DNA of 64,000 nucleotides from a virus. The position numbers and the translations under genes were made by a program. How positions within the stretch are numbered: position 1 is the first letter of the stretch; every line of letters begins with the position of its first letter. Under the pieces are notes generated by a model. That model worked only from the letters and a program-made list of their open reading frames with translations. It was not told where the DNA came from and did no database searches. The stretch covers positions 39,023-103,022 of IMG/VR virus record IMGVR_UViG_3300031758_000022; one strand, given 5' to 3'. Below are positions 16,547 through 31,761 of this stretch, piece after piece.

Positions 16547-16548
16547 AG

Positions 16549-17031: not shown

Positions 17032-17081
17032 ATATATTTGATTTACAATATTTTAGAAATAAAAAATGAGGCCTAGCCTCA

Positions 17082-17354
17082 TTACTCAATTTCAAACTCA
17101 AATGGTTCATCTGGTATATCATTATCATCAGGAAAATAGTCTTCAAAGTATGTTTCCACCTCATCTACTTCTTCTTCTTCCTCTTCCTTAATGTCCGGCT
17201 CTTCAGTTTTAGAGATAGAAGACCCTGACCAAGGATTTGATATATATTCCCCGGCATTTATACTCAGTAAATACTGAACATCCCTGTCTTTTAGATTGAG
17301 ATATTCCTCTACTGAAATATGAACCACTTTACCATTTGGAAGCTGATAATACAT
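17082..17354 (-). CDS. Small protein with acidic tail
   Basis: YQLPNGK N-terminus and E/D-rich C-terminal half; own promoter and terminator. Confidence 0.6.
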   Translation of the reverse strand: MYYQLPNGKVVHISVEEYLNLKDRDVQYLLSINAGEYISNPWSGSSISKTEEPDIKEEEEEEVDEVETYFEDYFPDDNDIPDEPFEFEIE

Positions 17355-17370
17355 TGTACATATAATCTAT

Positions 17371-17378
17371 CAAAGATA
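17371..17378 (-). promoter_or_regulatory. Bacteroidota -7 promoter element
   Basis: TATCTTTG (TAnnTTTG) 17 nt upstream of the ATG at 17354. Confidence 0.55.
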
Positions 17379-17443
17379 CGTGTACATAATAAAAAAACTT
17401 CTAACTACCACTACTATAAGCAATAATTAAAGCATTAATATAG

Positions 17444-17686
17444 CTAGGACCTCATAGCAAGTACCGCAGCTAAAACTGAGGCAATTGTAGAGGCAATGCA
17501 TAGCAAATAGCATATCTTTATGCCTTTATTAAAGGCACGCATATCTTGGGTAGCAGTAATACTAATTTTTGATGTATTTTTAACATCTTCCTTTAAATAT
17601 GATAGCTGATCTGTTATATGTTTGATCTGTTTACTATACGTCCCCATATAAACAGGACGTTGATCTTGAGTTCTTTTTTCATTCAT
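17444..17686 (-). CDS. Small protein with C-terminal TM
   Basis: 80 aa, hydrophobic C-terminus. Confidence 0.5.
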   Translation of the reverse strand: MNEKRTQDQRPVYMGTYSKQIKHITDQLSYLKEDVKNTSKISITATQDMRAFNKGIKICYLLCIASTIASVLAAVLAMRS

Positions 17687-17726
17687 AATAAAATTCTTTG
17701 TATTTTAAATAATAAATACTAGTCAC

Positions 17727-18719
17727 ATGGCAGGAAAAACACCAGCTCAGATCTGCAAAGATCATCTTAAAGAATATCCAAACACTCCAATACTTACTCT
17801 AGCTAAGAAAATCTATGGAAAGCACAATCTGCTTTTCAAAGATGTTGAAGCTGTTAGAACAATGCTTAGGCGTTATGCTGGATTATCAGGAAATAAATCC
17901 CGTAAAGTAAAAACAGAGCTTACAAGACCTGTTACTTACAATTACAATCCTTTTGATGATATTCCTGAATCTTTTATGGATGTTAGAGAACCTTATGTTC
18001 TTCCTACAACAGCTACTAATATTCTTATTCTTTCTGATATTCACTTTCCATACCATGATAAAGATGCTTTAAAAGCAGCTATTCAGTATGGAGTAGATAA
18101 AAACATTAATTGCATTGTATTAAACGGGGATATTCTTGACTTCTATCAGTTATCTGACTTTAGTAAAGACCCTAGTAAACCAAAAATGTCCAAAGAGTTG
18201 GAACTTGGTAGATGGTTTTTAGGTGCATTACGTAGTAAATTTCCAAATATTCCTATTTATTACAAGATTGGTAATCATGAAATGAGACTAGAGAGATGGC
18301 TTAAAGTCAAAGCTCCAGAATTTCTTGATACCGATGAATTTAGACTTGATGTGCTCCTAAGATTTGGAGAACATAAAATCCATTTGATAGATAAATATAC
18401 TGTAATCAAGGCAGGACATTTGAATATAATTCACGGCCATGAATACAAAGGTGCCGGAGGTGTATATCCAGCTAAGTATATTTATAGTAAAACTAAAGTA
18501 AACACCTTATGCGGGCACTATCACAGGGCCAGCACATTCCTTGACAAAAATATGGATGGTAATTATCACGGAGGATTCACAACAGGATGTCTGTGTGAAC
18601 TTAGTCCAGATTACCTACCATATAATGATTGGGTTCTAGGATTTTCAAGAGTAATTGTACATCCTGATAAATCCTTTGAGGTTGAAAACAAAATAATTGT
18701 TGACGGTAAAATAAGATAA
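17727..18719 (+). CDS. Calcineurin-like metallophosphoesterase
   Basis: SDIH, NGDILD, GNHE, HGHE, GHYH. Confidence 0.88.
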   Translation: MAGKTPAQICKDHLKEYPNTPILTLAKKIYGKHNLLFKDVEAVRTMLRRYAGLSGNKSRKVKTELTRPVTYNYNPFDDIPESFMDVREPYVLPTTATNILILSDIHFPYHDKDALKAAIQYGVDKNINCIVLNGDILDFYQLSDFSKDPSKPKMSKELELGRWFLGALRSKFPNIPIYYKIGNHEMRLERWLKVKAPEFLDTDEFRLDVLLRFGEHKIHLIDKYTVIKAGHLNIIHGHEYKGAGGVYPAKYIYSKTKVNTLCGHYHRASTFLDKNMDGNYHGGFTTGCLCELSPDYLPYNDWVLGFSRVIVHPDKSFEVENKIIVDGKIR

Positions 18720-18723
18720 TACA

Positions 18724-18948
18724 ATGGCTACATATGTAAATATGGGGTTGTACACTCCTGAAACTGAAGAAGAAGAAACTTATTCTCCCATTATCTACAT
18801 TGATGAAGAAATAGTACAGATCTTAAATACTGAACATGAATTTATAGCTCAATTTACCTACGAAGAACTCAGAGGTATAATGGCTATAATGGCTGCTGAA
18901 CAAGAAAAACAACACTTATTTATCAAAGCTCAGATAAAAAGCAATTAA
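18724..18948 (+). CDS. Hypothetical acidic protein
   Basis: 74-aa ORF co-oriented with the phosphoesterase. Confidence 0.55.
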   Translation: MATYVNMGLYTPETEEEETYSPIIYIDEEIVQILNTEHEFIAQFTYEELRGIMAIMAAEQEKQHLFIKAQIKSN

Positions 18949-19286
18949 GGCTTTTTCTTATTAGCTTCAATTTGTTCATCAAGGTATTTCTCTATTACTT
19001 GTTTTATCTCAGGTAACATATAAAATGGAATGTCACCAATCAGTTGAGAAAACTGAAGAACCTGTGCCATTATCATTTCCATATTGACACCTTCTTTTTC
19101 CCACAATCCGGAAATACCATCCTTATGCTCTTTCTGAATAGTATCATTTAACCTATTTAGAAGCATTTTAGTTTGGTTTCTATTAAACCATTTAATAGTA
19201 CTAGCCTCATCTGCAGCATATGTAGCTACCTGAAGCCAGACTAAAAGGTTTAAAATTCTTATTCTTTCCTCTTCTTTTAAAGTCAT
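18945..19286 (-). CDS. Hypothetical protein
   Basis: 113-aa ORF. Confidence 0.55.
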   Translation of the reverse strand: MTLKEEERIRILNLLVWLQVATYAADEASTIKWFNRNQTKMLLNRLNDTIQKEHKDGISGLWEKEGVNMEMIMAQVLQFSQLIGDIPFYMLPEIKQVIEKYLDEQIEANKKKP

Positions 19287-19498
19287 AGGAAACTAATGAT
19301 TTTTGCATAAATAATTTTACTTTTTTCTTTATGGCTTTCAACATAGCCATAGCCCACCTTAGTATCCTTACTAAGGCACATCATTGGATCTTCAACATCA
19401 TCAGGATGAAGAGGATATATACCTCTTTCCGTATGTATATGCCAAGATTTGTCATTTGGATCCAAAAATAAAAATCCTTGAGGAAATTTAACTTCCAT
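19283..19498 (-). CDS. Hypothetical protein
   Basis: 71 aa, YPLHPDD motif. Confidence 0.5.
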   Translation of the reverse strand: MEVKFPQGFLFLDPNDKSWHIHTERGIYPLHPDDVEDPMMCLSKDTKVGYGYVESHKEKSKIIYAKIISFL

Positions 19499-19559
19499 TT
19501 GTTTATTGTTTGCTTGTTTTAACCATCAAAAAAGCCCATAAAGGGCTTTAATGATAGAT

Positions 19560-19955
19560 TTAATATGCATTTATCTTAATTTTTACCTCTGTTTTAATGA
19601 TCTCATAAGATGACTTCATACTATCAAAACCATCTAAGAAACTCAGTAGAATAAACATCTGTGATGCCTCTGAGTAGTCCATTTTATTATTATTCATAGG
19701 AAGTTCTGTCCAAGTATAGACATCATCTACATAAATAACCTGTGCTGCAATCTTTCCAGCAACTGATGGATCCCAAGAAGCATTGTCTGCATAGTACATA
19801 GTAATTCTTTGGCCTGTAGACTTAGTAAATTCTGCAACTTCTATTACATATTCAATGTGATGCTCACCTTGAGTTTTATCCATTACATAATAAAACCTCT
19901 GTGTGCTTTTATCAATAGTAAAAGCATCTTTTGTTTTCTTTTTCTTTTTAGCCAT
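19560..19955 (-). CDS. Hypothetical protein
   Basis: Start moved to MAKKKKK (19955) because the upstream ATG lies inside a tRNA-like RNA. Confidence 0.6.
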   Translation of the reverse strand: MAKKKKKTKDAFTIDKSTQRFYYVMDKTQGEHHIEYVIEVAEFTKSTGQRITMYYADNASWDPSVAGKIAAQVIYVDDVYTWTELPMNNNKMDYSEASQMFILLSFLDGFDSMKSSYEIIKTEVKIKINAY

Positions 19956-19971
19956 AAAATTTAATAATTTG

Positions 19972-20060
19972 TTCCCTATACAAGATTTGAACTTGTATCC
20001 TACCATAAGGTAGATGTTACTCTCAATGCCAGTATTTATTCCTGGTTACACCAATAGGGA
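19972..20060 (-). ncRNA. tRNA-like RNA with expanded D-loop and 4-nt anticodon loop
   Basis: Acceptor TCCCTAT/ATAGGGA; T-arm ACAAG-TTCAAAT-CTTGT; D-stem GTGT/ACAT with inserted CCAG..CTGG hairpin; anticodon arm CTACC-TTAT-GGTAG. Confidence 0.65.
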
Positions 20061-20064
20061 TCTT

Positions 20065-20172
20065 AAGTCAAGACAGGATTTTACCTGTATGATATACACT
20101 TTGCAGGCAACCTAATCAATGATTCAAGGCTGTATATCTTACCACATTAGCGTCTAATTCCGCCACCTGACT
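20065..20172 (-). ncRNA. tRNA-Leu-like RNA lacking a canonical anticodon arm
   Basis: AGTCAGG/CTTGACT acceptor; TGGCGGAATTAGACGC D-arm; long GATATACA/TGTATATC arm; T-like arm ACAGG-TAAAAT-CCTGT. Confidence 0.55.
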
Positions 20173-20179
20173 ATTTACT

Positions 20180-20422
20180 TCAATACTTTAAAAGAGTAAT
20201 GCTATAATCTCCACAGATTTTCTTGAGAGAAGAATCTTGGGCGGTAAATGTGATACATACCGCTGATACTTGCTTGAAGTCATTGGTATAATACTTATTC
20301 CGGCCAGCATCTTCTACAAGATATAGATAGTCTGATGGATGTGAGTTTAGAAATACAACAGGATCAGGTGAGTATAGCTTACACCCAGTAAGCATCATCA
20401 CTAATACTATTAAATATTTCAT
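20180..20422 (-). CDS. Putative lipoprotein
   Basis: MKYLIVLVMMLTGC lipobox. Confidence 0.6.
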   Translation of the reverse strand: MKYLIVLVMMLTGCKLYSPDPVVFLNSHPSDYLYLVEDAGRNKYYTNDFKQVSAVCITFTAQDSSLKKICGDYSITLLKY

Positions 20423-20426
20423 TGTC

Positions 20427-20705
20427 TTACCAGATTATTGAAACAGCATGATCTGGTACTAGGAAAAAGAAATCTTCCTCAATCTGAATGACCTCTGAGT
20501 GTGCAATAGCTGCACCTACATATACTAGGTCACCTGGTTTGATGTCTGTTACATCATCACCTACAGCAAACACTTCAAGCTTACTGTATTTCATCATTAG
20601 ATCTTTTTCAAGACTAGCCTCCATCTCAGGAGTTAGTTCTATTAAAGATTCTTTTCTAACAATTGGCTTCTTAATAAGAATTCGTTTGCCTCTAACTTTT
20701 TGCAT
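20427..20705 (-). CDS. groES: GroES / Cpn10-like co-chaperonin
   Basis: RG.RILI..., EVFAVGDDV.DIKPGDLVY. Confidence 0.75.
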   Translation of the reverse strand: MQKVRGKRILIKKPIVRKESLIELTPEMEASLEKDLMMKYSKLEVFAVGDDVTDIKPGDLVYVGAAIAHSEVIQIEEDFFFLVPDHAVSIIW

Positions 20706-20740
20706 AATTTGATGGTTTTAGACCGTAAATGTACAATAAT

Positions 20741-21124
20741 TTATATTGATACAATATAATAAAAGAATGCTAAATCAGCATACATAACCATCAGATAAGC
20801 TCTATCACCTTCTTTATTAAGTCCAACATCAACATGACATCTTATCCCTTCATCATCCTTACCATAGAAGGTAGTAGACTTAGAGTTTTGATTGTATGTA
20901 CCCTCAATATTGATGATGTATAGGTGCTCAGCATAAATGATTACCCTTGACTTCTCTATACCAATCCTAATTGTAGGATAGGTAGCAGGACTCCAATTGT
21001 ATTCAGTTTCATACTCTTTTTTAACACCAATGTTGGCCTGTGTAGTTTCAAACCACACAGTCTCCTGGCAAAAAGCGCTAGTTGTTATGACAACAAATAG
21101 TAATATCAGTATAAGTTTTTTCAT
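20741..21124 (-). CDS. Secreted/periplasmic protein
   Basis: Signal peptide MKKLILILLFVVITTSAFC followed by Gln (Bacteroidota Q-rule style). Confidence 0.6.
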   Translation of the reverse strand: MKKLILILLFVVITTSAFCQETVWFETTQANIGVKKEYETEYNWSPATYPTIRIGIEKSRVIIYAEHLYIINIEGTYNQNSKSTTFYGKDDEGIRCHVDVGLNKEGDRAYLMVMYADLAFFYYIVSI

Positions 21125-21384
21125 TATTTCTTTGTTTTATAAACTAAATCACAGACTTCTATATACTCTAAATGTTTCATTTGAAGATATCTGTTAAGAA
21201 TCCGGGCCTTTGCCTCTAAATCCTCAACACTGTCTTTTAATGACTGAACATAAGAATAATCTGTTTTATGCTTAATCAATTTAGTGGGCTCTTTAGCACT
21301 CAAACTAAATTGAACTCCTATAATAGCAAGTATTATGATAATAATTACTATTATTGTTACATACTTAAAATTTGTTATTTTCAT
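21124..21384 (-). CDS. Membrane-anchored protein
   Basis: Ile-rich N-terminal TM. Confidence 0.55.
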   Translation of the reverse strand: MKITNFKYVTIIVIIIIILAIIGVQFSLSAKEPTKLIKHKTDYSYVQSLKDSVEDLEAKARILNRYLQMKHLEYIEVCDLVYKTKK

Positions 21385-21399
21385 AGCTTTTAGAATTGA

Positions 21400-21570
21400 T
21401 TAATTATCTACCGGCCAATAATAATCACAGGTAACTTTACCTTCATTATCTTCATCCCATTGAAAATCTCCATAGGATTGTCTAAATGGATTTGGTTCTG
21501 CAACAAATCTGTAACAAGTTAATCTCAAAGGACAAGTCTTGTTATCACACATTGCGGTATCTGGACTCAT
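21400..21570 (-). CDS. Small Cys-rich protein (56 aa, not in the ORF track)
   Basis: MSPDTAMCDNKTCPLRLTCYRF...CDYYW. Confidence 0.6.
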   Translation of the reverse strand: MSPDTAMCDNKTCPLRLTCYRFVAEPNPFRQSYGDFQWDEDNEGKVTCDYYWPVDN

Positions 21571-21585
21571 TTTGTTGTTTAATTT

Positions 21586-21885
21586 TTATTCTAGACACTT
21601 AGGATAGATGCAGTTGTCATTCAATGTACAACTCTCACCTTCTTTCTTTATTCCATTCTTAGAGCATTTGTCATCTCCTTTGAATATAGGATGGATTGGT
21701 AGATAGTCTTCGTGGTGTATTGTCCGCACACCTTCTAGGTATGCCTCCACAATCTGCTCACGCTCCATTACCTTAGCCTTTTTAATAAATTCATCAAATG
21801 TTGACCAGTCTAAACTTAGATGTGAGGATGAGCCATATTCTTCAAGCTCTTTCTTTAACCAGTCAATTGCCGTTTGTTTACTCAT
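21586..21885 (-). CDS. KQTA(V/I)xWL-family protein, copy 2
   Basis: Start MSKQTAIDWL at 21885; AK.ME.EQI..A motif shared with the neighbouring gene. Confidence 0.65.
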   Translation of the reverse strand: MSKQTAIDWLKKELEEYGSSSHLSLDWSTFDEFIKKAKVMEREQIVEAYLEGVRTIHHEDYLPIHPIFKGDDKCSKNGIKKEGESCTLNDNCIYPKCLE

Positions 21886-22099
21886 TTTCACCTCCGTATG
21901 TTTCGTTGTAGTATTGTTCTGCTTGGTCATTAGTCCATTGAGTATGTGGGTGTTTATCAAACACTCTTTGTCCTTCGATATGGGCATCAATCATCTGCTC
22001 CTTCTCCATTTGCTTGGCTTGTTTAAATATATTCGTCCAAAATGGATGTTGCTCTTTTATTTGCTCTACAAGCCATTCAACTGCAGTCTGTTTACTCAT
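21878..22099 (-). CDS. KQTA(V/I)xWL-family protein, copy 1
   Basis: MSKQTAVEWL...QAKQMEKEQMIDAH...AEQYYNETY. Confidence 0.65.
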   Translation of the reverse strand: MSKQTAVEWLVEQIKEQHPFWTNIFKQAKQMEKEQMIDAHIEGQRVFDKHPHTQWTNDQAEQYYNETYGGENE

Positions 22100-22254
22100 T
22101 GTTTCTCCTTTAGATATTTAACAAAAGTTTGATTACTAAGATCCCAATGTTTACCATTGAAGTAAGCATTAACTCTATTAGTATTACCCATCATAGTTTT
22201 TGTTTCTACAATATACTTTCCTGGGTTTTCAGGAAGAGATTCTAACCATTCCAT
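22096..22254 (-). CDS. Small hypothetical protein (52 aa, not in the ORF track)
   Basis: MEWLESLPENPGKYIV..., ATGA overlap with the next gene. Confidence 0.55.
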   Translation of the reverse strand: MEWLESLPENPGKYIVETKTMMGNTNRVNAYFNGKHWDLSNQTFVKYLKEKQ

Positions 22255-22256
22255 GT

Positions 22257-22559
22257 TTAGTCTGTCTTAGGGTGTTTACCATTCCACCATTCATATTCTG
22301 AGTTTTCAGTCATGAATCTGATGTAATGATTGTCTTCATCTTTGATTTCTTCTAGTATTTCTACTATTGGAGTAGTCAACCAATAATCTTGATTGGCATA
22401 TGTCCTAGCAGTTACACTGCCTACAAGTATAGAACAACCAACTGTTGGTATATGGCTTACTACTTTATCATAAGTACCATCTTCTTTCCAAGCAATTGCT
22501 TCAGATCTACCGCCATGTTCTTCTACATTGTCTCTTAATCTACGTAAGTGGAATGCCAT
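22257..22559 (-). CDS. Hypothetical protein
   Basis: W.TT.IVEI...F.T.NS.Y pattern. Confidence 0.6.
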   Translation of the reverse strand: MAFHLRRLRDNVEEHGGRSEAIAWKEDGTYDKVVSHIPTVGCSILVGSVTARTYANQDYWLTTPIVEILEEIKDEDNHYIRFMTENSEYEWWNGKHPKTD

Positions 22560-22595
22560 AATAATATATGTGGTTTGATTTTAATGCAATAATAG

Positions 22596-22775
22596 TAATA
22601 AGTATGTAGAGAGAAGGGGAAACGTTATCCCCCTTCTGCTCACTAATTAAACTGAAAAACTAAAAACTTAATGTTTGAGTCCTAGACTGACTCATCATTA
22701 TGAGAGCACAACACTCTCTACATACTTATTAGCAAACTGTAGAATCCAAGATATTACTACCAAGGATTCTACAGT
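22596..22775 (-). ncRNA. Candidate structured intergenic RNA
   Basis: 18-bp perfect inverted repeat (22596-22613 / 22714-22731) enclosing two hairpins, plus a 12-bp hairpin at 22736-22775. Confidence 0.45.
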
Positions 22776-22795
22776 CTATTTTATAAAGACTATGC

Positions 22796-23524
22796 TCAAT
22801 AGTCTTTATAAGTTTTGTGTAGCAGATTCAAAAGATATCCCGTATCATGAGGAATTCTTTCAAAATCACTACTGCTCTTGAGAGCATTAATCATTCTGTT
22901 GTGATCATACTTGCTACCAAGAGATCTATAAACAGAACAAAAAGCTGTATGAAATTTATTACTATTGGTTTTAACAACAGAACTTGCTTCAATCAGATTT
23001 TTTGTAAGTACTTCAGAATCAGGCATATTTACTGTGAAATTACCATTTCTAATAGAAGTTAGACCTCTACCTGATGTAGCAGATCCTCCAAGAATGCTAG
23101 CAGAAATTGCTACAGAAAGACCATTTTTGATAAAATGTTCCTTAAGTCTAAAGTAATTCTCATTACCAAGACCACAATATGCATTAACATAATCTGTCAA
23201 TGTCCATTTTTGTTGAACATTATTCAGAGTAGCCATCATATCCACAATTGTTGATACAGAATCTGTTTCAACAACAATACAGTGTACTTTTTTAATACGC
23301 AATCTCTTAAGAGATTCAACCAAGTGCTGACCATCAACATTGTAATACTCAGCCTTACCAGTAATTGCTGTAGTATATGCAAGAACAGGAGTTCTTAATA
23401 TACCTACACGGGCAATTGATTTTACTAGTGCTTGGACATGTTTTTCATTTTTTGCTCTATTGAAAGTAAGCTCCTTGATTTTATCAACAGCTATTTCAAC
23501 AAATTTGTGCTTAGAAAATTCCAT
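22796..23524 (-). CDS. ParB/Srx-like N-terminal domain protein
   Basis: NR....HV..L..SI...G...P, VDGQH, LN..QQKW...DY. Confidence 0.65.
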   Translation of the reverse strand: MEFSKHKFVEIAVDKIKELTFNRAKNEKHVQALVKSIARVGILRTPVLAYTTAITGKAEYYNVDGQHLVESLKRLRIKKVHCIVVETDSVSTIVDMMATLNNVQQKWTLTDYVNAYCGLGNENYFRLKEHFIKNGLSVAISASILGGSATSGRGLTSIRNGNFTVNMPDSEVLTKNLIEASSVVKTNSNKFHTAFCSVYRSLGSKYDHNRMINALKSSSDFERIPHDTGYLLNLLHKTYKDY

Positions 23525-23565
23525 TTGTGTTTTACTTTTTGTGTTTTCTTAATTTAAATAGTAAT

Positions 23566-23602
23566 AAAAATAAGGGGACCGGATGTTTCACCGGTCCCTT
23601 AT
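23566..23602 (-). terminator. Intrinsic terminator closing the large ncRNA
   Basis: GGGACCGG/CCGGTCCC stem followed by a T-rich tail on the minus strand. Confidence 0.75.
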
Positions 23603-23615
23603 GGCATCACGTAGA

Positions 23616-24116
23616 GCTTGAGAGAAAGTATTAGAACACCCTAACATTATACATGTTAGGACATAAACAGTGCAATATTCTATACGAGTGTTAGGCATCT
23701 CAGCCAATTCCCTCCAATACTACAGTATACTTGTTCTCTACTGGTCACAAAGAGACCGTCCAATACCTCCATATAAAAATAGGAAAGGGTACACCTTCTT
23801 ACCGACACTTCATTTTTCCAGGAAAACCTGTCCAAAAACTTATTAATTAATACTTTAGAACATTACAGGATAAAACATCCCTTTACTGTTGTTAAACATT
23901 AATCAACATTACATACTTCCTATGTATTGTTCTTGCATAAAAAATCCACATCAAACTGCTACCTTTTCATTATGTTCTTCACGCCAGAGGTTTAGCAGCC
24001 TCAGCCCTAAACGTACAGAATAATATAATAACTACTAGGATATTAGCTGGCTTTTCTTATACTTTGCGTAGTAGGCATTTATGAGTGTAAGTCTTTCAAT
24101 ACACTGCCTCTCAAGC
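23616..24116 (-). ncRNA. Large (~500 nt) ornate structured ncRNA candidate
   Basis: No ORF of 60 aa or more; 9-bp terminal stem GCTTGAGAG/CTCTCAAGC; nested long-range stems, more than 10 local hairpins and a loop-loop complementarity. Confidence 0.65.
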
Positions 24117-24121
24117 AATTA

Positions 24122-24958
24122 TTATAACTCCAGAGTTTTTAACTTCTCTGGTATGTCAATGTTATAATGCATTTTAACATGTTTACAGCTTTCATGATAA
24201 TGAATAGTACTACAACCGCAGTTATGACCTTTTTCAAAATGTGTAGCAAAGTGTAAATCATAGTCTTTAGGGATATCACCCCATGCACCACCACATCCTT
24301 GACTTAAAACAAGAACCTTTTTTCCCTTAGGTACTAATTTTTTAATATGGCCTAAGTAGTAATTCAGATCATCTCCTGAAGGTAAACCTTTAGAACTGAT
24401 ACATAATCTACTGCCATAATAAATCTTAACACCTTTGATCTTTTTAGCTTCTTCAATCAATGTTCTATGAAACCCTTTATCAAGGCTATTGTAACCAACT
24501 GATTCATCTACAAATAGATAAAGCTCTTGTTTGGTTTCAACAGTCATCTTCTTTTCATATAAAGCAAGATGAGGTTCTGATAGTAATTTCTTGAACACAC
24601 GCGGATAATTAAGCTTATCTTCAATAAGAAATTCAACCTTTGATAGTCTGATTAATTCTCTTTTGATTAAAGCTCTTTTATTCTCTGCATCTACTTTGGT
24701 AGAATCCATTCCTTTACCTCTTGATTTGCTAGGATTTTCTTTACTCTTAGCAGGTTGAGGTTTTTTAACAGATTTTTTCTGAGAAGGATTCTCTTTTCTT
24801 AACCTAGTAGCTACGCTTTGTAGCACCTCCGGACTGAGATCATTAACAGAATCAGGAGACACATTATACTCTTTACCTTTATAAGTATGAGTAAAACTTT
24901 TACTTTCTGATTTCATATAATAATCATCAAAAAGTTGTTGTTGTCTAAAATGTGGCAT
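24122..24958 (-). CDS. Degenerate VWA-like protein
   Basis: KLNYPRV, LYLFVDESVG (DxSxG), VLVLSQG; adjacent to a MoxR ATPase. Confidence 0.5.
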   Translation of the reverse strand: MPHFRQQQLFDDYYMKSESKSFTHTYKGKEYNVSPDSVNDLSPEVLQSVATRLRKENPSQKKSVKKPQPAKSKENPSKSRGKGMDSTKVDAENKRALIKRELIRLSKVEFLIEDKLNYPRVFKKLLSEPHLALYEKKMTVETKQELYLFVDESVGYNSLDKGFHRTLIEEAKKIKGVKIYYGSRLCISSKGLPSGDDLNYYLGHIKKLVPKGKKVLVLSQGCGGAWGDIPKDYDLHFATHFEKGHNCGCSTIHYHESCKHVKMHYNIDIPEKLKTLEL

Positions 24959-25024
24959 ATAATAAAGTAAAAAAGGGGTGAGACCTGCATCCCACCCCTT
25001 GATTAATTAAAAAACAAATGCTTA

Positions 25025-25888
25025 TTAAAGCATTGAACCAACATACGCTTCAGTATTCATTTGATAAGTAGACCTTAAATAATGAATAAACTTTTTCTGG
25101 TCCTCTTCTTCTTGAGAAAACTTCCATAGTAAAGCTCTATACTTCAATTCTTGAGAAGCTTTTCTACTAATAGGACAAGATCCTATAAAGTACAACTCTT
25201 GAATTAAGTCAGCCACCTGATTTTGACTCGGTTTCTTTTCCACCTCAAGCTTTCTATAAGCCATAACTAGATCAATTAAGAAATTGAATTTGCTAGTATT
25301 ATATGGTACAGTAAGCATAAGCCTAACTTGTTCAATAAGTTCAGCTCTTTCTGGAAAATGGAATTCGCGAATCAAGGATATACGCCTGTCAAGAGCATCC
25401 TCTAGTTCTCTTCTCTTATTAGATGTAAGTACAATGAACAAATTGTTTTTGTTACCATGTATAACACCTGTAAGAGGATCATTTAGAAGACATTCTTGCA
25501 TATAAGACAAAAGAAAAGTATCCACAGAAGGTTTAGCCTTATCAATTTCATCAATCAATAATACAACCTTGTGTGTTTGAGACTTCTTTAATGCCTGTAG
25601 TAAGTAGCCATCTTTCATTGCATCACGGCCAGATGTGTTTACATCTGTCATTGCATCAACCAAAGTGCCTAAGTCCCAGTTGAATACAAGCTGCTCTGAT
25701 GATACACCGTCATAACACGGTGCAAAAATCAGCTCAGCCTGTAATTCAGAAGCTAGAAACTTAGCAAAGCTAGTTTTACCAGCACCTGGTTCACCAAACA
25801 AAAGCATACTAGGTACGCATACAGTAGGATTGTTCATCAAATACTTGATATAACTAATATCCTGCAGTTTACTTTGGCTAAGTATCAT
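25025..25888 (-). CDS. MoxR-family AAA+ ATPase (AAA_5)
   Basis: GEPGAGKT, LLIDEIDKA, LTSN..REL.DAL.RR. Confidence 0.85.
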   Translation of the reverse strand: MILSQSKLQDISYIKYLMNNPTVCVPSMLLFGEPGAGKTSFAKFLASELQAELIFAPCYDGVSSEQLVFNWDLGTLVDAMTDVNTSGRDAMKDGYLLQALKKSQTHKVVLLIDEIDKAKPSVDTFLLSYMQECLLNDPLTGVIHGNKNNLFIVLTSNKRRELEDALDRRISLIREFHFPERAELIEQVRLMLTVPYNTSKFNFLIDLVMAYRKLEVEKKPSQNQVADLIQELYFIGSCPISRKASQELKYRALLWKFSQEEEDQKKFIHYLRSTYQMNTEAYVGSML

Positions 25889-26511
25889 TACTTATCACCT
25901 CCTAATCTTTTCTTAAGACTAATTAAGGCTCTAAGTAACTCTTTAAGTTCTTCAGGAGCATCTTCAGGAATATCATCTTCAGATGATAATTCAGAAACAG
26001 ATTCTTTAGAAGTTCCGGCTTTGATTTTAATTTCATCTCCTCTTCCAAGAGAATCAAGATGCTTTTTCAATTCATCAAGATCTGAACTAATCTTAGAAGA
26101 AGCCATTCTTGTATGAACTCCTTCATACACAGAAACAAAACCAGCTACCATTAGAAAGAAATGAATCTCTGGATCATCCATATTAATAAGATGTTCAAGT
26201 ACCTTAGATCTAGCATAACTGCCTTCTTCAGGATTCTCTTCAGATTCTTTCTTGGCAAAATCATGAAAAATCTTTACTAATTTTTCCTCGGCCATTTCTT
26301 TAGCCCATTGTTTGGAATAGCCTATAGCCTTCCAAAAGTCTATCTCAGGAGTGTGGTCAAATGGCTTTCTCCCTTTAGAGAACTTTCCATTACCACCCTC
26401 ATCTGGCAGATTAGTTGCTGCCCACATAAACGCTTTGTTACTAATAAGATTAGTAGGAGCATTGCTCAAAGCCTCCATAACTTGATTTTTGTAGTTACTT
26501 CCTTGACTCAT
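25888..26511 (-). CDS. Hypothetical protein
   Basis: 207-aa ORF coupled to the ATPase gene. Confidence 0.6.
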   Translation of the reverse strand: MSQGSNYKNQVMEALSNAPTNLISNKAFMWAATNLPDEGGNGKFSKGRKPFDHTPEIDFWKAIGYSKQWAKEMAEEKLVKIFHDFAKKESEENPEEGSYARSKVLEHLINMDDPEIHFFLMVAGFVSVYEGVHTRMASSKISSDLDELKKHLDSLGRGDEIKIKAGTSKESVSELSSEDDIPEDAPEELKELLRALISLKKRLGGDK

Positions 26512-26521
26512 GTCTTTTTTA

Positions 26522-26704
26522 TTAAAGGATTAGTTTTTTGGACAAATTTTCAATTTCTTTTTCAATTCTCTGTCTGTCCTTGTCAGAGAGTTGAGTAGTT
26601 CCTGGAACTGTTTTTCCATCTACTTTTAAGGGTTTAGTCCCTTTTTGAAGTTGTGCTTGTAGTCTTGAAACTACATTTTTTCTGCGATTTGATATATCTG
26701 CCAT
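26522..26704 (-). CDS. Small basic protein
   Basis: RL.AQL.KGTK...LSDKD..RIEKEI..L. Confidence 0.55.
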   Translation of the reverse strand: MADISNRRKNVVSRLQAQLQKGTKPLKVDGKTVPGTTQLSDKDRQRIEKEIENLSKKLIL

Positions 26705-26769
26705 ATAGGTTATAAAGATTTCAAAACAAAAACAGGGTTGGCTCTATTTATAGAAACCAACCCTGCATT

Positions 26770-26925
26770 TTAACTAATCCACCCCTTTACATAAAAATGT
26801 CCTGAAATCAAGCCTGATCTTCTCTCATTCATTGAGACTTTAACTGATTTGTAACGGGTCAATAGTCTAGCATAAGCAGTTTGAATACTGCTATACTCAC
26901 GATTAGTAAATTGTATTTGCTTCAT
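26770..26925 (-). CDS. Small hypothetical protein (51 aa, not in the ORF track)
   Basis: MKQIQFTNREYSSIQTAYARLL..., followed by a hairpin. Confidence 0.45.
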   Translation of the reverse strand: MKQIQFTNREYSSIQTAYARLLTRYKSVKVSMNERRSGLISGHFYVKGWIS

Positions 26926-26949
26926 GGTTAAGGGATTAAACGTTAAATG

Positions 26950-27021
26950 CCCCTTTAGCAGGATTCGAACCTACACACTCTGTTTAAAAACAGTGCTCTA
27001 ACCAGTTGGAGCTATAAAGGG
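26950..27021 (-). tRNA. tRNA-like gene with a 3-nt-short anticodon arm (Lys-like, undetermined)
   Basis: Acceptor CCCTTTA/TAAAGGG; D-arm GCTC-CAACTGGTTA-GAGC; T-arm GTAGG-TTCGAAT-CCTGC; anticodon arm only 14 nt, CTGTT-TTTA-AACAG. Confidence 0.75.
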
Positions 27022-27047
27022 TGCCTATTTAGGTCAGGCTTCTACAC

Positions 27048-27299
27048 TTAATTCTGAGACAAACTAGAATAGAATTCTCTTCTCTCATTTTCTTCTTTCA
27101 TATTCTTCTGTACAGTTTGTATACAGGCAAGAGTATCTTCTGAACTGATTCTATATCCAATAACTCTTACACTATTATACTGAGTATCCTTTTCAGGAAC
27201 AAGCATAATATGAATAAATGAGTTTCTGGATGTCATCACTTTCCAACAAAGACCTAGCTTAAGGAAGAAATACTGTACTGAGATTTTAAAATATTGCAT
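27048..27299 (-). CDS. Hypothetical protein
   Basis: 83-aa ORF. Confidence 0.5.
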   Translation of the reverse strand: MQYFKISVQYFFLKLGLCWKVMTSRNSFIHIMLVPEKDTQYNSVRVIGYRISSEDTLACIQTVQKNMKEENERREFYSSLSQN

Positions 27300-27335
27300 A
27301 TACTTAAATTATTAGATTTGCATTACATAGCTAAA

Positions 27336-27473
27336 TTAAACATTTTCAGTAATATCCAATGAATAAACCTCATTTGTACCATAAAAAGCTGCACGAGCAA
27401 ATGCTAATTCACGGTTTGGTGTGCACATCTCAATATTATGTGCATTGAAGTAAAAGTAAATAGATCTTGTCAT
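27336..27473 (-). CDS. Small hypothetical protein (45 aa, not in the ORF track)
   Basis: MTRSIYFYF...TPNRELAFARA; A/C-rich leader. Confidence 0.45.
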   Translation of the reverse strand: MTRSIYFYFNAHNIEMCTPNRELAFARAAFYGTNEVYSLDITENV

Positions 27474-27506
27474 TTGACTAAGTATTTGGTTTTTAATTAA
27501 TTAACA

Positions 27507-27890
27507 TTATTTAAAGTATTGGCTGTATACTAAATTAGTATTTTCTTCAGCCCATGTAACTATTTCTTCTTCCTTGTTGGTCACATCCCAATCATAGATG
27601 AGCAAGGACATATGAGCCATTTCGTGATTAATCAGGGTAATATCTCTATAGTCACCTTTAAGAGCAGACTTATTGATAAATATAAAAGGCAGCGGTGTTT
27701 TAGAAAGGGTACTATCTCTAGGATCATAGTTGCAAAAGCCATCTATGTATGTACCACCTTCAGCAATGCGGCAGATACACTTGTCTTTACTGACACCGTG
27801 CATCTCCTGGACATTGTAATAATCAAACAAATCTACAGCATTGTTACCAATGAGTAGTACAAACTGAGCATAATAGATAATCTGCATCAT
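27507..27890 (-). CDS. HExxH zinc-metallopeptidase-like protein
   Basis: FIFIN...LINHEMAH...EEE. Confidence 0.6.
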   Translation of the reverse strand: MMQIIYYAQFVLLIGNNAVDLFDYYNVQEMHGVSKDKCICRIAEGGTYIDGFCNYDPRDSTLSKTPLPFIFINKSALKGDYRDITLINHEMAHMSLLIYDWDVTNKEEEIVTWAEENTNLVYSQYFK

Positions 27891-27913
27891 GTAAGTTTTA
27901 AGTTAATTACGGT

Positions 27914-28053
27914 TTATCCCTCTGCACTCAGTTGTAATAGCATTCAAACTGTATTTCTACAGAACTCAAGCGTATATCAGGATTAGAGTTTTTATTTCTT
28001 CCTATCTATTACAACTGCTATCCCTTGGGAAGATAGTTATGGTGCATTAATAA
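27914..28053 (-). ncRNA. Twister self-cleaving ribozyme (P1 type, enlarged P5)
   Basis: TTAT-TAA-TGCA-CC-ATAA-CTATC-TTCCCAAGG-GATAG-[12-bp P5 plus insert]-AG-TGCA-GA-GGG-ATAA: P1, UAA, P2, P4 and both pseudoknots present. Confidence 0.8.
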
Positions 28054-28197
28054 TGAGGGTTATCTGAACACCCACAAACGCCAGCATCTTACTGGATAGT
28101 TATTTACAATATTTAATGTGCAGTGTAATAACAAAAGGCACAAGTATTCTCTATACTCACAGATATCCCGCCTGTGTATATTATTAACCCCCTACTA

Positions 28198-28310
28198 TAT
28201 AAGAGAGAGAGAGAGGATAAGAATAATACAAAGAGAGGATAAGAAGAAACGTAGTAGCTATGTAGTTAAAAGAGAGGAATAGAGAAAAAAGTAAGTTGAG
28301 GTAGAGTATA
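28198..28310. repeat. Purine-rich tract with AGAGAGGATAAGAA direct repeats
   Basis: Repeat copies at 28210 and 28232, (GA)n run, extreme strand skew. Confidence 0.5.
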
Positions 28311-28345
28311 AAAAAAGAGAGAGTGGATTACCCACCCTCTCTCTT
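28311..28345 (-). terminator. Intrinsic terminator
   Basis: AAGAGAGAG.GTGG../..CCAC.CTCTCTCTT stem plus a T-run on the minus strand. Confidence 0.65.
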
Positions 28346-28386
28346 CAACATAATACACTAACACTCAACAACTTAGAGACACTTGG

Positions 28387-28917
28387 TTAGTCTCCAAGTG
28401 TCTCATTTTCTTCCTCTTCCTCTGTGAAGACCTCACTACCGCCAACTTCATCCTCACTGCTTGCCAGAATGAGTCTACCTCCTTGATTTTCAAGGGATTG
28501 CATCTGCATTTGTATAGCACTTGCCAATGCAGGATACTTAATTGCTTGTGCTTTAAGCTCAAGCAGTTCAGTGTTATCAGCTGCGAAGCCAATTCTACCG
28601 TCTTCCTTCACATAGTAAGAGAGTTGTTTCTCTTTACCCATATGTGTGGAAGTGTGATAGAGTGGCACTTCCTTACCTGCAATAAGCTGTGGCTTACCTT
28701 CAGGTGTGGTTAGTACTTTGTAGTAGTCAGTGCCATCTTGGCGCTTAAACTGCTTGTACATAGCGAGTTCCTTAGGACTGGCATCCATAATGCCATAGCG
28801 CCACATAGTCACTACTTCAGTAAGTGGCTTGTTAGTCACTTCATTGAGAACAGGTAAACCGTTTACATCCTTGATGATGCGGGCTTTCTCGTAGCCATTG
28901 ATTAGTTTTAACTTCAT
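28387..28917 (-). CDS. Early protein (paralog of 29305-29706)
   Basis: KLK...RY....S.KELA.Y motif, acidic tail. Confidence 0.7.
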   Translation of the reverse strand: MKLKLINGYEKARIIKDVNGLPVLNEVTNKPLTEVVTMWRYGIMDASPKELAMYKQFKRQDGTDYYKVLTTPEGKPQLIAGKEVPLYHTSTHMGKEKQLSYYVKEDGRIGFAADNTELLELKAQAIKYPALASAIQMQMQSLENQGGRLILASSEDEVGGSEVFTEEEEENETLGD

Positions 28918-29045
28918 AACTGTTTGTTATTTACTTGATTTATAATTGTTTACTTAGTCTCTTGTACCTTTTAGATTTATCTAAAGGTACCTTGTATAAT
29001 AGGTTATAGAAAATAATAATGAATATTAAAACGTTAGTTTTAATA

Positions 29046-29240
29046 AATGCACCCAAGAATGTGGTGAGACTTAACTCACTGATTCTCAGTACCAAAGTGC
29101 TCCTGCTCCACAGGGCAGAGACAACTTAGTCTCTATTCTCACTCATCACTTGAGTGTAAATAGAGGATAAGGTGAACACAGAGGATAATCCACAAGTTAG
29201 AAATAACTTGGTCCCTTACAGATTGCTAACACAATCTGTA
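29046..29240 (-). ncRNA. Candidate ~195-nt structured early ncRNA
   Basis: Starts directly after the motif copy at 29241, has no substantial ORF, is a run of hairpins and ends at the hairpin 29024-29045. Confidence 0.5.
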
Positions 29241-29304
29241 TAATAGGTTATAAAGAATAATAATGAAAAAAAAAAATAACAGGGTGTTAACCCTGTTATT
29301 ATCA

Positions 29305-29706
29305 TTACTCCTTCTCATCCAACTTCTCCTCAGGAGATTCCTCAGGAGCGTTAGCTCCAAAGATCCTGTCCAGCATTTGATCACCAAGAATCCGTAAGGC
29401 TTCAGGTGATTTCTGAGCCATATATTCTAAGTTCCCGAAGGACTGATCATCAATGTGCCAAGTACCCTTGGTATCATTGCGCTCAATGCTCTTGCCTGCC
29501 ATAGGCGGAAGCCAAGAGAAGTAGAGCATCTCCTTAGTGACCTTATCAAAGGCGCCGCAGGTGCCCTTGACAATATCCTTACGGAACAAGGCAAGCTCTG
29601 CTTTGCTACCGTGGACGGTATAAGCATAGCGCGTCTGTTTTCTGTTAGACACTTTGTTCATCATAGTGAACTGTGTCTTAAGCTTGATTGTGAGTGTGTT
29701 TCTCAT
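29305..29706 (-). CDS. Early protein (paralog of 28387-28917)
   Basis: IKLK...RYAY...GSKAELALF, acidic tail. Confidence 0.7.
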   Translation of the reverse strand: MRNTLTIKLKTQFTMMNKVSNRKQTRYAYTVHGSKAELALFRKDIVKGTCGAFDKVTKEMLYFSWLPPMAGKSIERNDTKGTWHIDDQSFGNLEYMAQKSPEALRILGDQMLDRIFGANAPEESPEEKLDEKE

Positions 29707-29791
29707 TGTATTATGTATTTATGTAAACTTAGTAATAGGTTATAAAAAAGAGGAGTAAGGCGTTAGCCTTACCCTCACCCCACAAAAGAGC

Positions 29792-29932
29792 CTAAGCTCT
29801 TTTCTTCTCTGTGCCTAACAACAGAGCAGATGCTACAATGCAGAGCATAGAGATGCCGGTTAACAGGGCATCACCTATAAACATAGATGCAAACAAGCAG
29901 ATAATGGATGTAGATAACAAAACGGTATTCAT
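29792..29932 (-). CDS. Small two-TM membrane protein (46 aa, not in the ORF track)
   Basis: MNTVLLSTSIICLFASMFIGDALLTGISMLCIVASALLLGTEKKRA; 25 nt downstream of a motif copy. Confidence 0.6.
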   Translation of the reverse strand: MNTVLLSTSIICLFASMFIGDALLTGISMLCIVASALLLGTEKKRA

Positions 29933-30010
29933 AGCATTGGATTTAGTACAAACAAGTAATAGGTTATAACAAAAAAAAAGGGGATGTTAGTCCCCTTTTT
30001 CTGTGAATCC

Positions 30011-30313
30011 TTAAAGGCTTGGCTCTTCAGAGTCAGCATCTGCCAACGCATAGCAATTCCTCGCAAGGTTTGCTGCCTCCATAAGTTGAATCTGTAAGAA
30101 CTCACGGTTAATAATTGATTTGAACTCTTTAAGAGATTCATCCCCATACTCCCCATTGGAAATAGCATCAAAGGCTGTAGATAATTCACGAGCCTTCTGT
30201 CTGATACCAATGAGTTGAGGTGTGTAACTCAATAAGAGTTCATTTAATAATTCAGCATCTATTGATGTTGATGTGCGTCCCGCGCAGGACAAGATTACTT
30301 TTCCTTTTTTCAT
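30011..30313 (-). CDS. Early hypothetical protein
   Basis: 100 aa; ATG 27 nt downstream of a motif copy. Confidence 0.65.
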   Translation of the reverse strand: MKKGKVILSCAGRTSTSIDAELLNELLLSYTPQLIGIRQKARELSTAFDAISNGEYGDESLKEFKSIINREFLQIQLMEAANLARNCYALADADSEEPSL

Positions 30314-30383
30314 AATGATTGTGTATTAATGTAATACAGTAATAGGTTATAAAAATATATAGGACATTAGTCCTATATATATA

Positions 30384-30521
30384 CTAGTTGCAACCAACCC
30401 AAGGTACATAGATGTAGCCTGGGTGCAGCCACAGCTCCACAGGATGCATGTTCAAGGTGTGCAAGGCATCGTCAAAGGTGAGCAACTTGCCTGTGTCAAC
30501 AAGGTAAATGAATTCATTCAT
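30384..30521 (-). CDS. Small early protein (45 aa, not in the ORF track)
   Basis: MNEFIYLVDTGKLLTFDDALHTLNMHPVELWLHPGYIYVPWVGCN; ATG 27 nt downstream of a motif copy. Confidence 0.6.
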   Translation of the reverse strand: MNEFIYLVDTGKLLTFDDALHTLNMHPVELWLHPGYIYVPWVGCN

Positions 30522-30720
30522 GGTAGAAAAATTTAATTTTTCTAGCCTAATAGGTTATTCCTCTTAGTTGCTTGATAGGGGGTACCACCACTCTCAGACT
30601 GGGCCGGGGCCTGTTTTATTATAACCCACCATCCTCTACTCTTCAGACAAAATTTTTTTTACCATAAAATTTTTATACTGTCCCGAATATCAATATCTTA
30701 GCAATCTAATAATTACAATC

Positions 30721-31761
30721 ATGGAGAATATTGCTAAGGCACTACGAGTGCTTAAACTACCGGATACCCTGGCACCTTATAACGGGGCCTTTTATTATAA
30801 GGAGGCCAGCTTTCTTGTTGAGAAGCGGATTACTGATTTTACTAAGCGGGTTAACGGGAAGCCTACTGTCACATCTACCTTTGAGGTGAGGAAGGTTGTT
30901 TCTAATACTACTGGTTATGGGTTTAATCTGTTATCTGATTTTATTCATGAGTTTGGATATACCCTAATTTCTGATACTCTTCTTGATAAGAGGCAGGAGT
31001 ATGTTGTTACTTCTTCTGGTCCCTTTGCTGGGCAGACTTACTGGTATCCTGAGGGAAGACTTACAATGACTGCTACAGAGGCCGGTGCTGTTTTTAAACA
31101 TGTGTATAATCCTTTTAAGAATACTACTCTTACTGGCTGGCCTGAGATCACTAAGGGTGAAAATCCTAGTATTAGTATCTTACGTGAGGATTATGTAAAA
31201 ACATCTTCGGGGTTGTCTACTAAACCTAGTAAGTCTTATCCTTCATATAGGAGAGATGAGCTTATTAAGTTATCTGGTATGAGCTACACTGATATTAAGG
31301 AGGCTTATGCTGATAAGTTTTCAATACTTAATGGTGATTCTAGTACTAACGTGAAGTCTGTTGGGGTGGCTGTTGAGGTTGCTGAGACTAGTACAGCTGA
31401 TAATGAGATTACTTCGCATTATACAGGAAGTGTGTATTATAATGGTATTGATACTAGGGACTTCAAGCCATCTGGTTTGCTTACTTCTTATAATAAGGTA
31501 TATCCTGGTCATGTCACACGTTGGATCTTGTATAACGGGGCTATTAACTATTCAGCATACGGTGCTACATGGGTTATTCAGGAACCTAGCTCTACTATTA
31601 ATACTATTAATGTTGTTGCTGGTACAGAATTTTCTTGGAATTTACAGACAAGAACATTAACTTATAATAGTAATATACCTGCACAGTTACACTTCCAATA
31701 TGAGGAGTTACCTGCTCAGGGTAAGAATCAGAGTGCTCTTGAAATTATACAACTCAGCTAA
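30721..31761 (+). CDS. Hypothetical protein (possibly virion-associated)
   Basis: 346-aa Thr/Ser/Tyr-rich ORF; first gene of the plus arm. Confidence 0.65.
   Translation: MENIAKALRVLKLPDTLAPYNGAFYYKEASFLVEKRITDFTKRVNGKPTVTSTFEVRKVVSNTTGYGFNLLSDFIHEFGYTLISDTLLDKRQEYVVTSSGPFAGQTYWYPEGRLTMTATEAGAVFKHVYNPFKNTTLTGWPEITKGENPSISILREDYVKTSSGLSTKPSKSYPSYRRDELIKLSGMSYTDIKEAYADKFSILNGDSSTNVKSVGVAVEVAETSTADNEITSHYTGSVYYNGIDTRDFKPSGLLTSYNKVYPGHVTRWILYNGAINYSAYGATWVIQEPSSTINTINVVAGTEFSWNLQTRTLTYNSNIPAQLHFQYEELPAQGKNQSALEIIQLS

Follow-up and report, generated by a model that had tools for sequence, protein, structure and literature searches.

Among the crAss-like phages are the viruses most abundant in the human gut, and the RNA polymerase that these phages inject is a giant enzyme resembling RNAi polymerases. 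The DNA described here, termed the window, is a stretch of 64,000 nt corresponding to bases 39023–103022 of the 103,022-base virus record G000 (IMG/VR record IMGVR_UViG_3300031758_000022), which is 86% complete and derives from an uncultured phage. Within the window, an 11-mer, ATAACCTATTA, is repeated six times at the head of one gene arm, in an array of small cassettes. Judging from the placement of the copies and their replacement by other variants in related phages, they are probably phage-specific early promoters. No defined promoter or consensus for a crAss-type virion polymerase was found in the published literature searched, and the motif is a testable candidate for this still undefined promoter of the injected crAss-like RNA polymerase.

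Comparison with described promoter systems

The architecture of the array is that of the PeSLs of T4-type phages, which are cassettes of a stem-loop terminator and an early promoter that act as crossover points (Arbiol et al., Comeau et al.; PMC2839356, PMC4122927). In both cases, a terminator is followed immediately by a promoter (a putative one here), and copies of this pair flank small early genes, mostly ORFans, in a hypervariable region. The repeats are also crossover points for cassette shuffling in both, as seen here in the swapped order of the cassettes o46 and o100 in two related contigs, L224 and L232. However, the PeSL promoter is a host sigma-70 early promoter, whereas the element described here is a single box of 11–12 nt that varies between phages and has no host likeness, and the phage is crAss-like and not T4-type.

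In its behaviour as a private, multi-copy, and lineage-specific signal, the motif is like the promoters of phage-encoded polymerases. In the Thermus phage P23-45, the two-barrel virion RNA polymerase gp96, fused to the tape measure protein, reads AT-rich pre-early promoters (10.1101/2022.12.01.518664 / PMC10770324). There, too, a conserved short motif is repeated before the first-expressed genes, the virion carries a single-chain two-barrel RNA polymerase, and relatives having the polymerase also have the motif. The phage and its motif are unrelated to those of the window, and the P23-45 starts were mapped by ONT-cappable-seq and the occupancy by ChIP-seq, whereas the present analysis uses sequence alone.

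In phage phi14:2, early transcription covers the entire replicative module and resists rifampicin, and its first intergenic regions yield abundant non-coding RNAs (10.1101/2020.03.07.982082). The phage of the window shares with phi14:2 a homologous polymerase (6VR4), an arm for replication that diverges from those for capsid and expression, and non-coding RNA (predicted here) near the head of the early arm. The two differ in that no common early motif was detected in phi14:2, whereas the clade described here has a sharp multi-copy motif.

The promoters of T7/T3/SP6-type phages are about 23 bp long and are read by a T7-like single-subunit RNA polymerase. Common to them and the array are many identical copies per genome, a phage-specific variant, and a shared frame with few specificity positions. 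The array differs in the length of the element, and a T7-like RNA polymerase was not found here among the large ORFs. The early promoters P1–P3 of coliphage N4 are short-stemmed hairpins with 3-nt loops, set at a constant distance from the start site (PMC4496689). The early genes of N4 are read by an injected virion polymerase, as proposed here, but the hairpins of the array have loops of 4–6 nt, lie at variable distances, and are terminators.

Motif copies and their placement

The 11-mer ATAACCTATTA occurs six times without mismatch at 28997–30558, within 1.6 kb and always on the minus strand (first bases, in plus coordinates, 30558, 30350, 29967, 29743, 29251, and 29007). No further copy exists anywhere in the 103,022-base record, for which base composition gives a chance expectation of 0.26 copies on both strands together. 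Twelve bases, TATAACCTATTA, are common to five of the six copies. On the 5′ side of this 12-mer only T-richness is found, and on the 3′ side there is a weak T/A preference about 12–14 nt past the motif. The core 9-mer, AACCTATTA, has six intergenic occurrences, all within the array, and two chance occurrences inside genes on the opposite strand.

All motif copies are intergenic and oriented with the genes. The ends of copies 1–4 lie 26, 26, 24, and 26 nt before the ATG of open reading frames (ORFs) of 45, 100, 46, and 133 aa, respectively. The stretch downstream of copy 5 has no credible ORF, and copy 6 is located 79 nt upstream of a 176-aa ORF. A partial seventh copy, TTTATAACCTAT, lies 2.3 kb beyond the array and abuts the ATG of a 60-aa ORF. 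The features of the array are as follows.

30578–30620, minus strand: junction element rich in G+C (CCCCGG ... GGTACCCCC), located between the divergent genes and ending about 20 nt before motif copy 1
30548–30558, minus strand: motif copy 1, directly followed by a perfect hairpin; 26 nt before ATG
30384–30521, minus strand: unit 1, ORF o45 (45 aa); the unit is kept in contig L232, where junction, motif, and ORF show 84% nucleotide identity
30355–30380, minus strand: intrinsic terminator of unit 1; 11-bp stem, TAAT loop, T-run
30340–30350, minus strand: motif copy 2; 26 nt before ATG
30011–30313, minus strand: unit 2, ORF o100 (100 aa), the single conserved cassette gene and a marker for related arrays
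29973–30002, minus strand: intrinsic terminator of unit 2; CTAACA loop, T-run
29957–29967, minus strand: motif copy 3; 24 nt before ATG
29792–29932, minus strand: unit 3, ORF o46 (46 aa), hydrophobic; the cassette precedes o100 in L232 and L224
29753–29774, minus strand: intrinsic terminator of unit 3; TAAC loop, T-run
29733–29743, minus strand: motif copy 4; 26 nt before ATG
29305–29706, minus strand: unit 4, ORF o133 (133 aa); family scans negative, weak similarity to the first array ORF of L018
29275–29300, minus strand: intrinsic terminator of unit 4; TAAC loop, long T-run
29241–29251, minus strand: motif copy 5, heading a non-coding unit
29019–29240, minus strand: unit 5, about 220 nt, predicted to give a structured non-coding RNA; 5′ hairpin adjoining the motif, terminal A+T-rich hairpin at 29025–29044, T-rich tail
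28997–29007, minus strand: motif copy 6, followed by a hairpin; 79 nt before the ATG of o176
28387–28917, minus strand: unit 6, ORF o176 (176 aa); family scans negative
26702–26763, minus strand: seventh, degenerate cassette; terminator hairpin at about 26735–26763 with a T-run, then TTTATAACCTAT (about 26716–26702) and the ATG of the 60-aa ORF (26704–26522)

The first-pass annotation, made from the letters of the window, had described an 11-mer present six times in 1.6 kb, and a recount of exact copies gives the same number, with none elsewhere in the record. It had placed four copies 25–27 nt before an ATG; the four copies are indeed near an ATG, at true distances of 24–26 nt. The two unlisted small genes that it pointed out are the 45-aa and 46-aa ORFs, and its 31-bp repeat with two mismatches at 28993 and 29237 is confirmed (28993–29023 versus 29237–29267).

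The promoter recognised by the primary sigma factor of Bacteroidota consists of a −7 box, TAnnTTTG, and a −33 TTTG. Both are absent from the cassettes, in line with the earlier statement that the motif is not of this host type, and a sigma-70 scan gave no consistent −35/−10 pair at the motif copies. A frequent 10-mer, TAATCCTGAT, was also considered as a signal and rejected; because nine of its 10 copies fall within genes, on the coding strand, it is read as a coding-sequence repeat.

Hairpins between the units

The hairpins before copies 2–5 have G+C-containing stems of 9–12 pairs followed by T-runs. Between their 3′ ends and the motif are 4, 5, 9, and 23 nt. Copy 6 is preceded, at 17 nt, by a hairpin with a weak, A+T-rich 8-bp stem (29025–29044), and no TAAY-loop hairpin is found upstream of copy 1. 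A scan for terminator-like hairpins gave nine in 5 kb against 3.2 expected; four of the five loop-sharing hairpins were called, and the whole-genome scan called them as well. In seven arrays of this and related phages, an upstream hairpin is present in 47 of 58 cassettes at 4–34 nt from the motif (44 nt at the first copy of G001). The loops of these hairpins are diverse (TTCG, TTCT, GAAA, and (G/T)TAAC types), with TAA in 16 of the 47.

These hairpins are intrinsic terminators of the preceding unit. Since the loops of the relatives are diverse, the TAAY loop common to the terminators of the window is a local trait, and the loop was rejected as a component of the signal. The loop positions given by the first-pass annotation (plus-strand GTTA at 29033, 29286, 29762, and 29986; ATTA at 30366) are correct. 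Its cassette of TAAY-loop hairpin plus motif, taken as a single N4-like promoter, is not supported in view of the T-runs, the spacing of 4–23 nt, the exception at copy 1, and the varied loops in relatives. Instead, the alternative that it mentioned, that the hairpins are terminators, agrees with the T-runs after the stems, the variable spacing, and the other loops in relatives.

Because terminators with T-runs precede copies 2–5, each unit should need its own start. The terminators further along the minus-strand arm should also be noted. At 1–28400, many genes begin 10–25 nt past a strong hairpin with a T-run (e.g., before 4683, 11985, 17031, and 24958). These downstream genes have no room for a promoter, so read-through must be common in the phage. 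Either the terminators of this arm are leaky or its polymerase ignores them.

Arrays in related phages

ORF o100 has 31 homologues with 54–97% identity and 21 invariant columns, and matches no Pfam or PHROG family. The alignment of these homologues, used as a query, gave four more virus records and 20 metagenome contigs. At least 10 related genomes or contigs have the same architecture, with 3–13 copies of their own motif variant; the variants include AACTCCTTACT, AAGTCCTTAAT, AAAACCCTAAT, and AACACCTTAAT. The arrays are listed below; for G001, G002, G003, and G005, confinement to the array was counted over the whole records.

G001 (L028), 92 kb: AACACC(T/G)TAAT, 7 copies on one strand within 1.6 kb, in the array only
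G002, complete, 116 kb: AACTCCTTACT, 10 copies, in the array only
G003, complete, 114 kb: AAGTCCTTAAT, 13 copies, in the array only
G005, 91 kb, 76% complete: AAAACCCTAWT, 10 copies, in the array only
Metagenome contig: AAAGTCCTTAA(A), 9 copies
Metagenome contig: AAATCCTTAAT, 9 copies
Metagenome contig: AACTCTTTACT, 10 copies
Metagenome contig: AAGTCTTTACT, 5 copies
Metagenome contig: CAATCCTTAAA, 3 copies
L012 and L020: AAACTCTTGT, 5 copies each
L081, found via a clamp-loader-like gene: CTTACTTCTA, 6 copies at the expected place

The copies in G002, G003, and G005 lie on one strand in a single array of 2.7–4.7 kb. In G001, all copies but one, which heads a non-coding unit, are located 16–19 nt before an ATG, most of them follow a hairpin, and one cassette gene is 56% identical to o100. 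Across the relatives, the distance from motif to ATG is 16–22 nt. Other metagenome contigs have further motifs of the G001, G002, and G005 types, and the motif of the window itself recurs in two contigs, L224 (five copies) and L232 (four copies). It is absent from 80 loci around a conserved virion protein.

The variants can be aligned on a central CCT to give the frame A-A-A-N-N-C-C/T-T-T-A-A/C-T, and the version of the window, T-A-T-A-A-C-C-T-A-T-T-A, departs furthest from it. Each o100 homologue stands behind the variant of its own genome. The motif therefore belongs to the genome and not to the gene. Comparison of related genomes had been suggested as a check, and it shows the same layout with an own variant at the same positions.

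Several candidates and neighbours outside these arrays should be mentioned. In IMG/VR, the exact 14-mer TATAACCTATTACT gave single chance hits among the matches listed, and two loci with two copies of the 11-mer are unrelated coding sequence; both were rejected. In the first 12 kb of phi14:2, a scan found no comparable array, and an A+T-rich element, TAAAACTAAA, lies 11–16 nt before start codons. In the same region (L083, 1–12000), TAAAACTAA(A) occurs 8–13 times on the coding strand, with several copies 11–16 nt before the annotated starts of early genes. These elements of phi14:2 are probably a translation-initiation context and not promoters.

Conservation and shuffling of the cassettes

In L224 and L232, which have 70–93% nucleotide identity to the window in blocks, every AACCTATTA is intact while the leaders and ORFs have diverged, which points to selection on the motif. 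The order of the cassettes is o45-o100-o46-o133 in the window, o45-o46-o100 in L232, and o46-o100-short non-coding stub-o133 in L224. Successive blocks overlap by about 33 nt, and this breakpoint holds the motif. In L224, for example, the leader of o100 is linked via the motif to the terminator found before o133 in the window. Judging from these breakpoints, the shared motif also serves for recombination, by which the relatives have come to differ in cassette order. The cassette genes besides o100 are not shared between genomes and have no family match. The array would be a case, outside the T4 group, of promoter-terminator repeats that drive cassette shuffling.

Predicted non-coding RNA and hairpins after the motif

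The 238-nt stretch at 29008–29245, which covers unit 5, has a minimum free energy of −72.2 kcal/mol, compared with −51.6 ± 4.5 kcal/mol for shuffled sequences (z = −4.57), and no Rfam family was found in the unit. It lies inside the best-conserved block of the array, 1,144 nt (29297–28158) that are 92.7% identical to L224. In a three-sequence alignment including the more distant L233, both-sided changes are found in 10 of 66 predicted pairs, three of them in the terminal hairpin; with three sequences, these paired changes are suggestive of a conserved RNA structure in unit 5. Short non-coding units are also located after the o100 cassette in G001, G002, and G003.

In units 1, 5, and 6, a hairpin begins 0–2 nt past the motif, and the hairpins of units 5 and 6 are retained in L233 with unrelated sequence. 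Their position fits that of 5′-end stem-loops of transcripts that would start at or just after the motif. The sequence TTATCCTCT is found twice inside the non-coding unit (29162–29188) and twice in a CT-rich 496-nt gap (28212–28242), on the minus strand.

Genome plan and the candidate polymerase

Judging from its virion proteins, the phage is a distant crAss-like virus. The terminase, portal, and major head proteins match crAss-type PHROGs, and the best matches of the portal are crAss-like and Cellulophaga/Flavobacterium phages with less than 33% identity. The array region had no match to GenBank phages by blastn. Genes diverge at 30560–30720, with the capsid arm running rightward and an arm with ParB-like and clamp-loader-like genes running leftward. 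The array forms the head of this leftward minus-strand arm, which is of the replicative, early type; its genes would be early by analogy with phi14:2.

A virion RNA polymerase had been expected outside the window, and a 3,680-aa ORF of the gp66 type is indeed located there, at 15054–26093 of G000. It has the catalytic motif DFDxD at residue 2485 and is similar to gp66, the virion RNA polymerase of phi14:2 (PDB 6VR4, E = 7e-24). Polymerase homologues with DFDxD are present in five of five relatives tested, and the catalytic region is 25–43% identical among these phages; a virion structural protein, by comparison, has at least 77% identity between window and G001. A search of the record for sigma-70 region 2, with a working positive control, detected none, and a Pfam scan of all large ORFs gave no match to PF00940 (T7-like polymerase).

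Proposed mechanism

The array would consist of six back-to-back, self-contained units, each made up of a promoter motif, a leader of 24–26 nt, a small ORF, and an intrinsic terminator. One unit would give a structured RNA of about 220 nt in place of an ORF, and the next motif would begin 4–23 nt past the preceding terminator hairpin. The motif is strand-specific and intergenic, keeps a fixed distance to starts, stands at the head of the early arm, and is replaced by an own variant in relatives, all of which fit a phage-specific promoter and not a host promoter. The signal would be set by the phage and not by the host; the frame common to the relatives is A-rich, then CCT or CTT, then TTAAT-like. 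Because the copies are identical within a genome, change together between genomes, and have no likeness to host consensus elements, a phage-encoded specificity determinant is suggested. Most likely this is the gp66-type polymerase, the only recognisable candidate.

The most likely reader of the motif would be the phage's own gp66-type polymerase, carried in the virion and injected, in which case the array genes would be expressed first. We lean slightly towards this injected enzyme as the one that reads the motif, and we infer that transcription would start at the motif, at an early time, and by this polymerase. The earlier proposal of early promoters for a phage RNA polymerase stands as far as phage-specific, promoter-like behaviour is concerned, with the gp66-type enzyme as the candidate polymerase. 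A broader formulation seems to us evenly balanced: the W5-CCT-W4 family may be the first defined promoter class of a crAss-type two-barrel virion RNA polymerase, with positions 4, 5, 7, and 11 of the 12-mer as co-evolving specificity positions and with the arrays as an immediate-early programme including a conserved structured RNA. If so, the specificity positions would co-evolve with a fast-diverging polymerase as in the T7/T3/SP6 series. A sharp signal with natural variants, together with divergent polymerases, offers a handle for cross-testing polymerase/promoter pairs in vitro. The arrays would also mark first-expressed small genes and a conserved non-coding RNA as candidates for host take-over or anti-defence functions.

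Several observations weigh against assigning the motif to the injected polymerase. The co-divergence of motif and polymerase is qualitative, covers six genomes by pairwise identities, and is inseparable from plain phylogeny. Of an arm of ~35 kb, only the first ~4 kb carry the motif, and the rest must be expressed otherwise. The array is not universal; G004/L203, L002, and the Leptolyngbya phage Lbo-JY46 (first 50 kb), the closest cultured relative by portal protein, showed no evident array. The authors of the phi14:2 study found no common motif upstream of the early transcripts made by gp66, and gp66 was active in vitro on denatured DNA only (10.1101/2020.03.07.982082). The common read-through in the arm weakens the argument that every unit requires its own start. 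In addition, the separate genome search for PF00940 had no positive control, and a sigma-like factor may have been missed because the record is 86% complete.

Other explanations of the repeats

The main rival, which we consider unlikely, is a host RNA polymerase redirected by an unrecognised phage factor. The motif would then be read through a phage-made specificity factor (a sigma-like protein or an activator, perhaps encoded by the first cassette or carried in the virion) or an unusual host sigma factor, and the units would be expressed either as middle genes or as early genes that depend on the host. A two-box look is given by a weak second A-rich element 5–12 nt past the motif, and most small proteins of the incomplete record have no annotation. 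However, the motif has no likeness to the consensus elements of sigma-70 or Bacteroidota promoters, the record shows no sigma-70 region 2, and the array heads an arm that is rifampicin-resistant in phi14:2. Promoter elements of primary sigma factors are stable across a phylum, in contrast to the at least 10 variants among these closely related phages. Another polymerase-based explanation, in which the TAAY-loop hairpin is extruded and recognised by the virion polymerase as in N4, is hardly credible here. The N4 virion RNA polymerase does use hairpin promoters (PMC4496689), and five TAAC/TAAT-loop hairpins precede five of the copies. Against this are the spacing of 4–23 nt here and 4–34 nt in relatives, the T-runs, the exception at copy 1, the presence of TAA in 16 of 47 loops, and the polymerase itself, which is of the two-barrel gp66 type and not an N4/T7-type enzyme.

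The motif might instead act in RNA, as a processing site or a site for a phage RNA-binding protein, with the arm transcribed from the junction through leaky terminators. We regard this as quite improbable, though terminator read-through must be common further down the arm, an RNA-binding protein encoded by the phage is compatible with the fixed distance to ATG and the variation between lineages, and the non-coding units could be excised products. The distance to ATG is 24–26 nt here and 16–22 nt in relatives, but 79 nt in unit 6, about 220 nt in unit 5, and 0 at the seventh copy; because it varies so, the position of the motif relative to the ribosome site is not constant. Transcription would also have to pass, one after another, four strong terminators with long T-runs, and in L204, the first copy lies 6 nt past the junction element, leaving little room for an upstream promoter. 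A further explanation takes the repeats chiefly as sites of recombination, either integron-like or left behind by repeated insertion, with no transcriptional role of their own. The different cassette order in close relatives with its breakpoint at the motif, and the mostly ORFan cassette genes that differ between genomes, would be expected from such sites. It leaves unexplained the strict strand and the distance to start codons, and it does not account for a motif that is kept while its flanks diverge or for the concerted change of all copies between genomes. No integrase was found among the genes scanned, which were a part of the genes, and shuffling is already known as a by-product in T4-type PeSLs (PMC2839356, PMC4122927). 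A role in recombination without one in transcription is therefore very improbable, and early promoters of the phage are preferred as the explanation of the motif.

Junction element and other features

The G+C-rich junction element upstream of the array is shared with relatives. In L028, L204, L001, and L018, GGTACCCCC is found in the same place after a CCCCGG-type run. The order CCCCGG, about 17–20 nt, and GGTACCCCC is observed in at least five related phages (e.g., L028 at ~1500, L204 at ~3000, L001 at ~181, and L018 at ~2310), and in some genomes the element carries a palindrome, GGGGTACCCC. Its possible roles include those of an origin, a binding site, or an end used for packaging or entry. 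L002 and L004 have a different junction, with a large G+C-rich non-coding region and a leader motif ending in ATG. In L002, which is close by its virion proteins, this region (4400–5700, minus strand) contains more than 1 kb of G+C-rich non-coding sequence with tandem CATCTACGTATTTCTACTTAG and CAACAT repeats, and the genes after it share a 20-nt leader ending in ATG (TTAAACACTAGAAATCATG).

In L081, CTTACTTCTA at 6460–7160 lies within large hairpin loops and also in inserts that seemingly split two tRNA-like genes; ARAGORN calls only an uninterrupted tRNA-Arg at 7089–7163.

On the plus strand of the window, TATATTTG boxes of the TAnnTTTG type are located at 38612 and 50922, 20–23 nt before the ATG of the late genes at 38643 and 50950. 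Start codons in the phage are without Shine-Dalgarno sequences. These boxes and the lack of Shine-Dalgarno sequences suggest a Bacteroidota host, with the host polymerase used for late genes.

Downstream of o176 is a 496-nt ORF-free gap (27891–28386). An Rfam scan of 22000–31000 gave a weak L20-leader-like match at 28305–28418 (E = 0.008, below the family threshold) and no twister family at 27914–28053. A tRNA-like gene at 26949–27021 on the minus strand scores 47.8 bits against the Rfam tRNA family and has an abnormal anticodon loop according to ARAGORN.

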